From a virus (taxonomy: Duplodnaviria > Heunggongvirae > Uroviricota > Caudoviricetes): DNA of 10,606 bases. The DNA lies in the IMG/VR virus record IMGVR_UViG_2663762810_000005, positions 1 through 10,606 of that record. One strand, 5' to 3'. Below, piece by piece: positions 2,937-10,606 of the stretch; within the stretch, counting starts at the first letter, position 1, and each line of letters opens with the position of its first letter. The position numbers and the translations under genes were made by a program. The notes under the pieces are model-generated. The model did not search any database. It was not told the origin of the DNA and saw only the letters and a program-made list of their open reading frames with translations.

Positions 2937-3223
2937 GATTTACTCTCCACGAACTGGTCAATAGCCATGCTAAGTGACATACCTAAAGTTTCGATATGTT
3001 GCTGAATATCCTGTAGCGTCTGCGCCTGAGATAACAGGATTTCACGGTTGCATAACTCTTTGACCAGATGCTCAAACTTGCTGTAATAACCGATACGGCT
3101 TAGTGTTTCTTTCCCTGCATTCTCACCTTCTTTGATAATTCCTCTTTCACTAAGAATCAGGTCGTGTTTGGTTCCGGTAATAACGTATTTTCCGAGGTCG
3201 ATGTTTAGCTTCATTGTTTTCAT
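2933..3223 (-). CDS. Hypothetical phage protein (96 aa)
   Basis: Track ORF 2933..3376 trimmed to the ATG at 3223 (GAGGAA SD 6 nt upstream), which lies just after the stop of the 3234..3530 gene. Confidence 0.5.
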
Positions 3224-3233
3224 TGTTAATTCC

Positions 3234-3530
3234 TCAGTCATTACTGATAGCGCCATAGCGTGAGCGGTAATTACGCAGGCGCGGGTCGATATATTCAGGG
3301 AAGTGGGTATATGTGGCTTTGCGGAATGGTCGGATTGATGTCTGGTAAATTCGCTCGCGTTCTTCTTTCTCTGCAAGCCATATACAGTGGCGAAATTCCT
3401 TTTCCTCTTTCGTTTCCTGCGGTAGAGACATTATTCGATCGTAGTTTTTTCTGAATTTATCCAGCACCTCCGATACGGAATTGCCGGAACAGCGGCGCGC
3501 GTCATCCGCACCATACAGAGGCGCTGGCAT
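3234..3530 (-). CDS. Hypothetical phage protein (98 aa)
   Basis: ATG at 3530 with GGAG SD; 13 nt downstream of the ssb stop. Confidence 0.5.
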   Translation of the reverse strand: MPAPLYGADDARRCSGNSVSEVLDKFRKNYDRIMSLPQETKEEKEFRHCIWLAEKEERERIYQTSIRPFRKATYTHFPEYIDPRLRNYRSRYGAISND

Positions 3531-3543
3531 GATTTTCTCCTGA

Positions 3544-4059
3544 TTAAATTGCGTGAATAGCGTGACGAGGGAAGGGGAGAGTTACTGGTGCAAAGGGTAT
3601 ATCGTCGTCAAAATCCATAGGTGGTTCGCTGTGATTCCCTTGCTGCTGAGGTTGCTGTCTTTGTTGCTGACCGTCATTTCGCTGAGGTGAAGACTGTTCA
3701 TTGCCTCCTTGCTTGCCACCAAGCATTTGCATGGTTCCACCAACGCCCACGATGACTTCGGTAGTGAACCGATCCTGTCCGCTTTGATCCTGCCATTTTC
3801 TTGTCCGCAATTTTCCTTCAAGATAAACCTCAGAGCCTTTTCGCAGATATTCGCTGGCAATTTCTGCCAGTTTTCCGCTCATTACCACGCGGTGCCACTC
3901 CGTCTGCTCCTTTTGCTCTCCAGTTTGCTTATCACGCCATTGTTCTGACGTAGCAACTGTAAGGTTTGCAAATGCCGTTCCTGATGGTGAATATCTGATT
4001 TCTGGATCATGCCCAAGGCGACCAATAATGATCACCTTATTTACGCCTCTGCTTGCCAT
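3544..4059 (-). CDS. ssb: Single-stranded DNA-binding protein (SSB) with a 15-aa extension beyond the acidic DDDIPF tip
   Basis: 171 aa; N-terminal [18 protein letters not shown]-fold start, Gly/Gln-rich linker, MDFDDDIPF motif, then [15 protein letters not shown] before the stop. Start abuts the upstream stop (TAAATG). Confidence 0.85.
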
Positions 4060-4767
4060 TTATGCCGCCTGTTTTAGTTCGTTAACTCTGATGTTCATTA
4101 CCTGAACGCATTTAGCCTGCGCATCCTCATTGCCAGCCATTAATTGCCAGTCATGCTGATAACGTTCGATGAGTTTTTTCTTGTCAGTTTCTGTCGACGC
4201 ATAATCGCTGAAGTCTTTCAGGATTTGTTCGCAGTCAACCGATGGAGATTTCTGGTTGGTATTTTCTGGTGATGGTTTGTTATCTGATACTGGCATTGCC
4301 CAGCCCGGCAGCGATGGAGGGAGCCAGTAAAATCCTGTTCCATCCTTCAGTTTTGCCCTGTGCCATCCCTGCTTTTTATCGAGAGATGTTTGTGCGAAAC
4401 CTTCCTCAAGGTTATACAGATACCGACCGATTCCCCACTGAACGGCAGCACGCTTCATTGCACCTGAACGACCACCTTTGACGGCTTCTACCTGCGTGTT
4501 TTCAGCAGCATCCCATTTGGTTACCCATTCGGAATCAATCCTGATTGATATGCCGCATTCAACGCCTCCGTTGTTGGGAATATCGCGGTATTCATTGCGC
4601 CATCCTGCTTTGCCGCAAACATCGTCCAGGCGTTTCATGATTGCCCTGTTCGTGACATAAGCCAGCACCATAGCCCACACCTTGCCATCGCGTGTTTTAC
4701 CGCTTTGCTGTATTCGCCATTCGATATCTTCAGGGCTGAATGGCTCATCGAATTTGTTCAAATCCAT
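4060..4767 (-). CDS. Rad52/Sak-type single-strand annealing protein (phage recombinase)
   Basis: 235 aa; EDIEWR and AAVQWGIGRYLYNLE motifs recalled from Rad52/22-family annealing proteins. Sits directly upstream of ssb, a typical annealing-protein plus SSB module. Confidence 0.65.
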   Translation of the reverse strand: MDLNKFDEPFSPEDIEWRIQQSGKTRDGKVWAMVLAYVTNRAIMKRLDDVCGKAGWRNEYRDIPNNGGVECGISIRIDSEWVTKWDAAENTQVEAVKGGRSGAMKRAAVQWGIGRYLYNLEEGFAQTSLDKKQGWHRAKLKDGTGFYWLPPSLPGWAMPVSDNKPSPENTNQKSPSVDCEQILKDFSDYASTETDKKKLIERYQHDWQLMAGNEDAQAKCVQVMNIRVNELKQAA

Positions 4768-8740: not shown

Positions 8741-9617
8741 GTTAGCTGATTACAGGCATAACCCTGTACAACATCAGGAGGCATCCAGTATGGGGTATGT
8801 CTCTATACACCGCCAGTTTATGGACAGCAGGCTCTATAAGGACTCTCAGGCAGTACATCTTTGGCTTCACTTAATCCTCAAGGCTAATCACGAATCTACT
8901 GTCGTCAATACGGATATCGGTCCGATAACTGTTGATCGCGGTCAGATGATAACTGGACGCCCGTCGCTGGTCAGAGAAACATTCATCCCAGACAACAAAG
9001 TTCGGAGCTTATTACGGACTTTTGAGTCGAAAGGTATGCTTAATATTTGCTCGATGGGGAAGAAATTTAGCCTGTTTACAATCGTTAAATATGACGATTT
9101 TCAGGCAAAAAATTGTCCAACGGTTGTCCAACGGTTGTCCAACGCAAACACCAGTAATGGCGCGGCTCTCAGCGGAGATTGTCCAACGGTTGTCCAACGG
9201 TTGTCCATAAACAATAATATAAATAATATCTCTAATACTGACGTATTAGAGAGTGCCACAGCAGACAAAAAGTCTGACAAGAAAAAACCTTCCGTTAGCT
9301 GTCAGGATGTTGTCGATGCTTACCACGAAATCCTTCCTGAAGCGCCAAGAATCCGCGCACTGAATGACAAGCGTAAAAACCAGATCCGAACGTTCTGGCG
9401 CAAAGCCGGAGTGATAACCCGACAGCTTGACGGGCATGGTTTCACGATGCAGGACTGGAGAAATTATTTGAGCTACGTAGGCGAAAATTGCCGATGGATG
9501 TTCGAAGAGCGCCCAAACCATCAGCGCGGAACCGTCTGGCACAAAAAGGGATTTGATTTCCTGCTTAACGATAATACCTACCTGAAAGTTCGTGAGGGTG
9601 AACACGATGACCGATAA
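8727..9617 (+). CDS. Replication initiator (lambda O / P22 gene 18 analogue) with the origin inside its coding sequence
   Basis: 296 aa; AGGAG SD; position after cII; contains two arrays of 11-bp iterons encoding repeated CPTVVQRLS, then an AT-rich segment, as in lambda ori within O. Confidence 0.7.
   Translation: MGVVKLADYRHNPVQHQEASSMGYVSIHRQFMDSRLYKDSQAVHLWLHLILKANHESTVVNTDIGPITVDRGQMITGRPSLVRETFIPDNKVRSLLRTFESKGMLNICSMGKKFSLFTIVKYDDFQAKNCPTVVQRLSNANTSNGAALSGDCPTVVQRLSINNNINNISNTDVLESATADKKSDKKKPSVSCQDVVDAYHEILPEAPRIRALNDKRKNQIRTFWRKAGVITRQLDGHGFTMQDWRNYLSYVGENCRWMFEERPNHQRGTVWHKKGFDFLLNDNTYLKVREGEHDDR
9113..9209 (+). repeat. Origin iterons: 2 x 3 tandem copies of TTGTCCAACGG (9113..9144 and 9179..9209), separated by 34 bp
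   Basis: Direct tandem 11-bp repeats read in the sequence; followed by an AT-rich stretch and a 10-bp inverted repeat tctctaatac/gtattagaga (9229..9252). Confidence 0.8.
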
Positions 9618-10170
9618 TTTTTATGCGCCGCCCCATAGCATCGAGGCAGAGCAGGCGGTGATTGGTGGATTGCTTCTGGATGATGACAGCAGTGAGCGCG
9701 TCCAGAAGGTTCTGGCGATGCTGAAGCCTGACTCATTTTACAGCCGACCACACAAAATCCTTTTCGAAGAAATAACCAGAATGCACCGGGAGCAAAAGCC
9801 AGTAGATGGCCTGACGCTTTTCGATGAACTGGAGCGTAAATCGTTAACGGCGTCTGTTGGCGGTTTTGCTTATATCGCTGAGATCGCAAAGAACACGCCA
9901 AGCGCAGCAAACATCGTTGCCTATGCAATGCAGGTTCGTGAAACCGCAATGGAACGCTACGCCATCAACCGCATGACTGAAGCGACGGAATTGCTCTATT
10001 CCCGCAACGGAATGACTGCAACGCAGAAGTACGAAGCTATTCAGGCGATTTTCACGCAACTGACAGACCATGCAAAAACCGGATCGCGTCGCGGCCTTCG
10101 CTCATTTGGTGAGGTCATGGAAGACTGGGTTACCAGTCTTCATCGCTGTCACGGTTCAGGGTGTAGTTAA
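9607..10170 (+). pseudogene. DnaB-family replicative helicase gene (P22 gene 12-like), truncated: N-terminal domain only
   Basis: From ATG 9607 (GAGGGTG SD, overlapping the initiator stop): PPHSIEAEQAVIGGLLLD...SVGGFAYIAEIAKNTPSAANIVAYAMQVRE closely matches the recalled E. coli DnaB N-terminal domain. ORF stops after about 188 aa with no Walker-type ATPase domain; homology is lost near 10127. Confidence 0.7.
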
Positions 10171-10606
10171 AGGCGCCGGCCTGAAGCGGGCGACTCAGGG
10201 CAAATGCACCTTCTTCTGTGGTGGCACCATTCTGTGCATCCACAACCCGGATACCCTGTCCGGAGGTTGCCACCCCGAGGTTACTGTTTCCGACATTTGT
10301 AAACGCAAGCCAGGTTTTGCCGGTTGCCTGACCACCATTAATCACCAGCTGGTCAGAGGCATTACTGCCATCAAGGCTAACACGCATATTGATGGTGCCA
10401 CCCTGACCGGTGAGGTTACTGGTTGTCAGTTTATGGAACGTTACCGGGGCGTTGCCTTTTACAACAGCACGGCTCAGTACGGCATCCGGTGTTGTCTGAT
10501 TGTCAAAGTAAATCTCCCCTGCGTTAACAATATCGCCGGTACTGACCACATCACCATTCAGTACCATGCTGGCGCCTTTACTGAGCTGTGTTCTGCCACT
10601 CAGACT
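10130..10606 (-). pseudogene. Autotransporter-type (AIDA-I/Ag43-like) passenger-domain fragment, 3'-truncated; open to the window edge
   Basis: Minus-strand frame is open from 10606 to a stop at 10130; Gly/Thr/Asn-rich beta-helix-like repeats (LVINGGQATGKTWLAFTNVGNS, GIRVVDAQNGATTEEGAFALSRPLQAGAFNYTL) recalled from autotransporter passenger/autochaperone regions; no beta-barrel domain follows. Confidence 0.5.

Follow-up and report, generated by a model that had tools for sequence, protein, structure and literature searches.

The window, meaning the whole stretch of 10,606 nucleotides that was analysed, carries on its minus strand an ssb gene set within a phage recombination module. The stop codon of a gene for a Rad52/Rad22-family single-strand annealing protein, directly upstream, abuts the ssb start, and abc2, which encodes a phage anti-RecBCD protein, lies directly downstream. 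This order of annealing protein, ssb and anti-RecBCD gene, all on the minus strand, is the SSB-1 arrangement of the lambdoid Rec module in the early-left operon, and it agrees with the HK75-type recombination module of lambdoid phages in those passages of PMC12315714 that describe it. The features of the locus are as follows.

3234..3530, minus strand: abc2, phage anti-RecBCD protein, 98 aa (PF11043, E=4e-61; the identical gene is so annotated in RefSeq)
3531..3543, minus strand: 13-nt spacer TCAGGAGAAAATC, in which a Shine-Dalgarno-like AGGAG precedes abc2 (from the sequence)
3544..4059, minus strand: ssb, 171 codons plus stop (open reading frame list and raw sequence)
3544..3546, minus strand: TAA stop of the extended ssb (from the sequence)
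3547..3591, minus strand: post-tip extension, 15 codons, aa 157-171 (from the sequence)
3591..3592, minus strand: F156-A157 codon boundary, the position of the HNH cassette in Sf6-type alleles (junction comparison)
3594-3592, minus strand: codon of Phe156
3592..3624, minus strand: acidic SSB tip, aa 146-156, internal instead of C-terminal (from the sequence)
aa 113-145 of the window SSB: disordered linker
aa 1-112 of the window SSB: OB fold
4060..4767, minus strand: Rad52/Rad22-family single-strand annealing protein (PF04098, E=7e-26, and annotation)

Further to the right the prophage is shortened, ssb itself being intact. Homology of the window to E. coli prophages ends at about position 10132, and a DnaB-like helicase open reading frame (9592-10170) comprises the N-terminal domain only, with an autotransporter fragment then lying on the other strand.

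An SSB with an internal tip

The first-pass annotation described a prophage SSB with 15 residues past DDDIPF, marking positions 3544-3600, which hold the I-P-F codons, the extension and the stop. The open reading frame of 171 aa at 4059..3544 on the minus strand bears this description out. PF00436 matches residues 6-105 of the protein (E=1.3e-38) and TIGR00621 scores 184 bits against a cut-off of 54. Aligned from residues 1 and 4, the profiles TIGR00621 and NF006533 reach their own last position at residue 156, and the final 15 residues thus lie outside the SSB family model. The acidic tip motif D-F-D-D-D-I-P-F is present after a disordered linker (residues 146-156), but it does not stand at the extreme C-terminus with a free Phe alpha-carboxyl, as 15 residues come after Phe156.

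An AlphaFold2 model (monomer, 50 homologues) shows the OB fold and predicts disorder from residue 105 on, where pLDDT stays below 50 and is about 30 for residues 105-171. The monomer model gives no signal of the tail folding back, residues 105-171 having no confident structure. The chance that 15 codons stay open after a lost stop is (61/64)^15, or about 0.49, and the open 15-codon frame is unremarkable by itself; what goes beyond chance is its conservation.

Spread of the extension among phages and prophages

The extension is very probably a real, conserved and selected feature. Positions 3400-4100 of the window are 100% identical to a complete E. coli chromosome, and the junction of tip and extension is found in 299 of 5426 complete E. 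coli genomes (91-nt probe spanning the junction, at least 80% coverage). Full-length matches that include the tail occur in the viable isolated phages HZ41, ECP1, epsilon34, g341c, HK75, mEp235 and mEpX2, and in the CP-1639 record. In a search of 5.8 billion proteins, the pattern [AS]P[VI]TLPFPRH[AT][IV][HY][AV][IL] ends about 115 of the best 120 protein clusters, which are 74-97% identical to the window SSB and include Klebsiella, Citrobacter, Salmonella and E. coli proteins; only three of these 120 clusters have an SSB that ends at IPF. The comparison with SSB genes of related prophages that the first-pass annotation had proposed therefore finds the extension conserved and, in these ~115 clusters, near-invariant.

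Two of the cautions attached to the original observation were that a sequencing error had created the read-through, or that the extension reflected decay of a cryptic prophage gene. The first is excluded by the identity to the E. coli chromosome, the 299 genomes and the ~115 clusters. The second finds no support, the extension being present in viable phages, in hundreds of prophages and on an IncN plasmid, with a dN/dS of about 0.14. The window prophage is itself truncated at ~10132, as might be expected of a decaying element, but its intact ssb is identical to copies in other genomes, and the same frame and stop recur in hundreds of genomes and in viable phages. Taken together, error or decay is scarcely credible as an explanation.

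Related tails on plasmids, ICEs and distant phages

The tail is typical of Enterobacterales mobile-element SSBs, being found in lambdoid recombination modules, on an IncN plasmid, on a likely phage-plasmid and in ICEs. The SSB of the IncN conjugative plasmid pKPC-SMH has nearly the same extension as the window. An 86-kb non-mobilizable Salmonella plasmid, possibly a phage-plasmid, encodes an SSB with the extension APIGLPYPRHTVYCL, and a lysozyme gene adjoins this ssb. Among distant phages, the SSB of Hafnia phage Pocitis76 has a diverged homologous post-tip extension and that of Salmonella phage MS2 LVA reads DPIPF-APIGLPYPHHAIYVI. Two further SSBs, encoded next to DUF3577 genes in an ICE-like context, have the extensions IGFGYDCSRVAIHAL and LGHGYGICRKAIYAIS, and one of the two genes also adjoins a topoisomerase III gene. 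With the SSB bearing LGHGYGICRKAIYAIS as query, 103 of the best 119 clusters had a post-IPF extension of 15-16 residues, and some variants, such as LGFGYGIAKSAIYAL, bridge the phage and ICE types.

A profile built from 80 unique extensions in 219 proteins gives, for the diverged but alignable tails, a rough consensus of [AL][GP]xG[YL]x[VFI]x[RK]xA[IL][YH]A[IL], 15-16 residues long after DDDIPF. Its positions are 1 A/L, 2 G/P, 4 G/T, 5 Y/L, 9 R/K(N), 11 A(T), 12 I/L, 13 Y/H, 14 A and 15 I/L, with an optional 16 S; the window extension matches at positions 1, 2, 4, 5, 7, 9 and 11-15. As a control, 75 of 80 ssb genes from diverse Gammaproteobacteria, mostly chromosomal, end at PF; this set came from a contig scan with the SSB body, the same scan that exposed the ICE-type extensions. 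In a library of 50%-identity cluster representatives, where many top matches are frameshifted or truncated, 18 of the best 150 SSB matches have clear post-PF extensions, several of which start with AP.

The neighbours of extension-bearing ssb genes vary. The annealase upstream is Rad52-like, Sak4/AAA_24 or ERF; downstream come genes for Abc2 or a distant Abc2-like protein, for a DnaQ-like exonuclease or for unrelated proteins. DUF3577 and topoisomerase III genes take these places in ICE contexts. No element-encoded partner that co-varies with the tail was found among the neighbours compared across phage and ICE contexts.

The plasmid and ICE copies raise the idea that the extension is a type IV secretion signal for translocating the SSB into recipients. 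An F-like plasmid SSB is translocated by its own type IV secretion system, according to passages of PMC8406263. Those passages map no C-terminal signal in SSB, however, and nearly the same motif is present in lambdoid and P22-like phages without such a system, so that we regard a translocation signal as highly improbable.

Conservation and selection

By mean pairwise identity within the 115 clusters that carry the extension, the tip is the most uniform region (0.95), the extension (0.85) is about as conserved as the OB fold (0.87), and the linker varies most (0.54); P158, L161, F163, R165 and H166 are invariant within the extension in ~115 clusters. The selection estimate draws on loci that were picked for their SSB body: those of the window, epsilon34, HK75 and CP-1639, two from Klebsiella contexts, and one each from Salmonella and a metagenome. 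For the extension, an estimate from 15 codons and 5-10 sequences, pS is 0.32-0.44, pN 0.06-0.09 and dN/dS ~0.14; at the same loci dN/dS is ~0.02 for the tip and ~0.05 for the OB fold. An earlier estimate on loci retrieved with a back-translated tail pattern was set aside as ascertainment-biased, because such a pattern fixes the amino acids. The extension thus evolves under purifying selection, and the acidic tip is even more constrained. It had been foreseen that the extension might prove common and neutral in related functional phages. Common it is, viable phages included, but its dN/dS speaks against neutrality.

Part of this conservation is a product of recombination or gene conversion at a mosaic boundary and not of selection on the peptide. 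The extension is identical at 48 of 48 nucleotides between E. coli and Salmonella phages that agree at only ~71% over the SSB body, and its synonymous divergence (pS 0.32-0.44) is lower than that of the body (~0.7), both of which point to such exchange. The shared extension DNA stays identical exactly up to the stop codon, where the next gene differs.

An HNH endonuclease gene at the tip/tail boundary

The F156-A157 boundary is the site of an HNH endonuclease gene of the Sf6 gp26 family (phrog_2340). The window runs contiguously across it and is the uninterrupted, endonuclease-free allele. In Sf6, Huey and IMG/VR loci, an insert of 438-444 nt lies exactly between the F and the A/E codons. The Sf6 SSB, 97% (96.8%) identical to the window SSB over residues 1-156, ends NFDDSDIPF and stop. 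The gp26 gene (HNH-type, 159 residues) starts nine nt past the end of ssb, and the last 14 residues of its product are those of the window extension, encoded by identical DNA. The spacer and abc2 then come as in the window. The match to an SSB had not escaped the Sf6 GenBank entry, whose note on gp26 speaks of '14 contiguous amino acids identical to E. coli SSB'. On the upstream flank of the cassette the last ~nine tip codons are recoded (AAC TTC GAC GAT TCG GAT ATT CCG TTC TAG), while the sequence before them and the extension DNA downstream of the cassette are identical to the window. With the cassette come the recoded tip and a stop codon, and the reading frame of the HNH gene continues into 14-15 codons of the tail. 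The outcome in Sf6-type phages is an SSB with a canonical tip alongside an HNH protein that carries the SSB tail.

Three HNH subtypes occupy the boundary. The Sf6 and Huey types are 48% identical overall with their last ~40 residues almost fully shared, and the third retains the Ala codon (...PDE-APVTL...). Extended SSBs outnumber the interrupted alleles, with ~90 against 24 HNH-with-tail alleles in a pattern scan of IMG/VR and ~299 junctions against ~98 such alleles in E. coli genomes. Other extension-bearing SSBs are 71-84% identical to the window SSB, as against 97% for the canonical-tip Sf6 SSB. Since the Sf6-type canonical-tip SSBs are in this way nested within extension-bearing relatives, they look derived, and would be the product of invasion by the endonuclease gene. 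From the structure of these alleles, we infer that the gp26-family protein is an active homing endonuclease that would target the empty junction.

The reverse history, in which the tail is native to the HNH protein and the SSB extension is a deletion scar, was discarded as the main account. The HNH relatives that Pectobacterium and Vibrio phages encode terminate near WHxxNxPxY or shortly beyond it, without the SSB tail; the phrog_2340 profile ends at gp26 residue 143, and database alignments of gp26 stop at residues 137-151. Distant SSBs with no HNH gene after ssb also retain homologous tails. P22 Abc1 was considered as a source of the tail as well, and its C-terminus (...SRLSRLRKK) is unrelated.

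Several other arrangements were noted around these genes. The Sf6-type HNH open reading frame in E. coli ACN001 is unannotated by RefSeq. Further HNH genes lie beside ssb in ES18, Pocitis76 and yong1. The ssb gene of Vibrio phage 252E42.2, whose tip reads DFDDDRS-stop-DIPF-stop, likewise has an HNH relative after it. In E. coli EC931 a rearrangement has fused the final codons of the tip, together with the extension and abc2, to a holin gene that is truncated.

In Sf6, IME10, N7, Huey and CurroJimenez the tail is no longer part of the SSB, yet these phages are viable, so that laboratory growth does not depend on the tail. This viability would be expected if the extension were a neutral hitch-hiker, a functionless leftover of a lost stop or of imprecise HNH loss that was spread by recombination or endonuclease-driven gene conversion. 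The complete nucleotide identity between otherwise diverged phages and the reduced synonymous divergence fit such a history too, as does the linker-like position of the tail between ssb and variable genes (abc2, a DnaQ-like exonuclease, others). A scar is harder to reconcile with a dN/dS of ~0.14 in the face of abundant synonymous change among copies from Klebsiella, Salmonella and metagenomes, or with five positions invariant over ~115 clusters. The same length and terminal pattern also recur in ~60% identical SSBs of plasmids, ICEs and distant phages with unrelated neighbours, and HNH relatives elsewhere do without the tail. We consider neutrality quite unlikely.

Selection could instead act on the DNA, the 45 nt being kept as a homing recognition site or homology arm, a recombination linker or a translation-coupling signal, with the peptide incidental. 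The endonuclease cassette sits exactly at the 5' edge of the extension, in epsilon34 the DNA identity ends exactly at the stop codon and, upstream, at the F codon, and synonymous divergence in the extension is again low, all of which such an element would explain. It would not explain why the amino-acid pattern is preserved through different codons and in variants with little nucleotide similarity. The downstream genes differ, moreover, and a scan of 3200-4100 found no promoter-like or terminator-like site. A purely DNA-level role accordingly appears distinctly improbable.

Proposed function of the tail

Our preferred reading is that the 15-residue extension is a genuine, translated and selectively maintained C-terminal module, a "post-tip motif", that would interfere with canonical docking and present a new terminal motif; to this reading as a whole, as distinct from the conservation of the tail, we assign a probability of about one half. 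The first-pass annotation had suggested that the extension may retarget or block the binding of host partners, and this is the best-supported functional interpretation. The pockets that receive the SSB C-terminus (SSB-Ct) bury the Phe side chain while a basic lip anchors its alpha-carboxyl group, and removal of the terminal Phe abolishes binding (PMC10164576). Because host partners anchor the free alpha-carboxyl of the terminal Phe, proteins such as ExoI, RecQ, RecO, PriA and chi would be expected to dock in the canonical way on an extended SSB poorly or not at all. That the tail both masks the canonical tip and re-addresses the SSB we rate at slightly under an even chance.

If so, the extended SSB could coat the element's ssDNA without recruiting host nucleases and mediators (ExoI, RecJ, RecQ, RecO). 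Coating without recruitment fits a module that encodes an annealase and an anti-RecBCD protein. It would also match what passages of PMC8406263 and PMC11541004 propose for plasmid SSBs, namely protection and an anti-SOS role.

A mere cap needs no specific sequence, yet the pattern is conserved, which suggests that the new C-terminus may itself be a short linear motif for another partner. Since the flanking genes differ between phage, plasmid and ICE contexts, an element-encoded partner is unlikely, and a host factor, or else the SSB itself, is the more probable candidate. The strong constraint on the now-internal tip is odd, in that simple inactivation does not explain it, and it keeps alive models in which the extension is a pro-peptide whose removal would unmask the tip, or in which tip and tail form a composite motif.

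The first of these models can be widened to a removable cap or degron: the extension would be cleaved to expose the tip, or would act as a degradation signal limiting the SSB level. ClpX C-motif 2 consists of basic residues and then a terminal A-I-type dipeptide, as in RRKKAI of MuA. The terminus of the extension follows the form basic-x-A-I-[HY]-A-[IL], the whole tail is predicted to be disordered and so would be accessible, and strong constraint on both tip and extension would suit a tip that is used after unmasking. The likeness of the R-H-A-I-H-A-I terminus, and of the family pattern [RK]xA[IL][YH]A[IL], to the ClpX motif is loose, and we find a removable cap or degron unlikely.

Beyond the single locus, the post-tip motif may define a large unrecognised class of mobile-element SSBs that bury the tip under a conserved motif of 15-16 residues and coat ssDNA stealthily or in re-addressed form, with an HNH homing endonuclease parasitising the boundary. 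We offer this broader proposal tentatively and hold it more doubtful than even. In such a class the tip would be buried against host nucleases, RecFOR and tip-sensing defence systems, possibly with docking of a host factor or unmasking on cue.

Significance

The view of SSB as an interaction hub rests on the free C-terminal Phe, and a conserved capped-tip class would show mobile elements tuning or evading that hub. Capped-tip SSBs bear on how phages protect recombination intermediates and on how incoming plasmid or ICE ssDNA escapes SOS induction and nucleases. They are also relevant to defence systems that SSB-like phage proteins with the tip motif are reported to set off (bioRxiv 10.64898/2026.04.29.721553). 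In recombineering an annealase is paired with an SSB tail, so that a tail variant matters there. Annotation pipelines label the extended proteins simply 'SSB'. The tip/tail boundary, finally, is a clean natural setting in which to study how a free-standing homing endonuclease remakes the 3' end of the gene that it targets.

Comparison with known systems

The lambdoid SSB-1 proteins (Sf6 gp27, ES18 gp48 and the HK75 type; passages of PMC12315714) have the same gene position as the window SSB, between annealing protein and Abc2. The window SSB is 90% (89.7%) identical to ES18 gp48 over residues 1-156. In Sf6 and ES18 the HNH gene behind ssb makes the protein end at IPF, whereas the extension is present in the SSBs of HK75, mEp235, epsilon34 and the window. 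Sf6 gp26, a free-standing homing-endonuclease-like gene, shares its tail with the window SSB but is itself absent from the window. The passages concerned in PMC12315714, a 2025 survey of lambdoid Rec modules, place these SSBs in a single sequence type and consider HNH genes potential members of the Rec module; the extension is unmentioned in them. Among the titles and passages retrieved from the literature, in a search of incomplete coverage, there was no description of a post-tip extension.

A phage annealase can depend on the tail of its cognate SSB, as Sak4 does on the HK620 SSB (HkaK; PMC5928155). HK620 SSB is likewise a recombination-module protein whose C-terminal residues mediate a partner interaction (PMC5928155), and it shows that the tail of an SSB from a phage can be specific for one partner. 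Unlike the window protein, it is a distant homologue with a free NDYPPF end and no post-tip extension, and its partner is the phage annealase, whereas upstream of window-type SSBs the annealase family varies (Rad52-like, Sak4-like, ERF). The leading-region SSBs of plasmids (F-like pED208) are also mobile-element copies of bacterial SSB, and passages of PMC8406263 and PMC11541004 propose that they protect incoming ssDNA and damp SOS induction. The passages on F-like SSBs in these two papers mention no extension, whereas the IncN plasmid SSB carries nearly the same one as the window.

With the E. coli-type SSB (PF00436, TIGR00621) the window protein has in common the OB fold, with 67-70% core identity to solved SSBs, the disordered Gln/Pro-rich linker and the same acidic tip. 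It differs in that this tip is not C-terminal: 15 conserved residues come after the Phe, which has no free alpha-carboxyl to offer the pockets. Among solved SSB chains none was found that covers such a tail. The window protein is thus a bacterial-type SSB in fold, linker and tip that departs from the family in the one respect, a C-terminal tip, on which the interaction-hub model depends.

Mosaic boundary at the end of ssb

The 15-residue extension of the prophage SSB (window 3547-3591, minus strand) was compared with the corresponding DNA at loci L003 (phage epsilon34), L221, L222, L224 and L225. The 45-nt extension and its stop codon are identical at 48 of 48 nucleotides between phages whose SSB bodies, the portion preceding the extension, share about 71% protein identity. 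The same comparison placed a sharp mosaic boundary at the F|A junction, the codon boundary (F156|A157) between the acidic tip and the extension. Selection on the peptide does not fully account for this boundary.

At the other edge, a gene for a DnaQ/Rv2179c-like 3'-5' exonuclease sits as an insertion between the stop codon of the extended ssb and abc2 in epsilon34 (3008-3580) and at locus L212 (3017-3592). The identity of the extension DNA to the window stops precisely at the stop codon. In E. coli EC931 (L004 2396-2575), a prophage rearrangement has fused a truncated lambda-family holin gene directly to the final codons of the tip (I-P-F), with the extension and abc2 following. Its breakpoint is only a few bases away from the site where the endonuclease gene is inserted.

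Endonuclease genes around ssb

In E. coli ACN001 (L229 936-1437), ssb and abc2 are separated by a 159-codon Sf6-type HNH endonuclease ORF that is wholly unannotated in the RefSeq (PGAP) record; the allele is present in about 98 complete E. coli genomes. In Vibrio phage 252E42.2 (L227 1080-1626), an ssb gene is likewise followed immediately by the gene for an Sf6 gp26 HNH homologue. The tip encoded by this ssb is DFDDD-RS-stop, with DIPF-stop continuing in the same frame, as though an insertion of 9 nt that includes a stop codon had split the tip-coding sequence. Unrelated HNH endonuclease genes occur downstream of ssb in ES18 (T7 gp7.7-like; L008 2472-3031) and between the annealase gene and ssb in the Hafnia phages Pocitis76 (L006 1484-2008) and yong1 (L007 1484-2011). 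Such genes seem to land repeatedly at the ends of ssb.

Right end of the prophage

Window 9592-10606 contains the following features:

9592-10170, DnaB-like helicase ORF, N-terminal domain only
10133-10567, minus strand, autotransporter fragment with autochaperone/pertactin domains, following the helicase ORF

Because the match to E. coli prophages stops at about 10132, the helicase retains only its N-terminal domain and an autotransporter fragment lies beyond, the prophage is judged to be truncated at its right side. The whole window was not found in any one genome of the collection of complete E. coli genomes.

Extension on an IncN plasmid

The KPC-carrying IncN conjugative plasmid pKPC-SMH (L230 1801-2334) encodes an SSB, and full-length matches of the same kind occur in dozens of Enterobacteriaceae plasmids of 35-60 kb. 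The body of the pKPC-SMH protein is only 61% identical, yet its terminus, [23 protein letters not shown], is almost the same as the extension of the window prophage.
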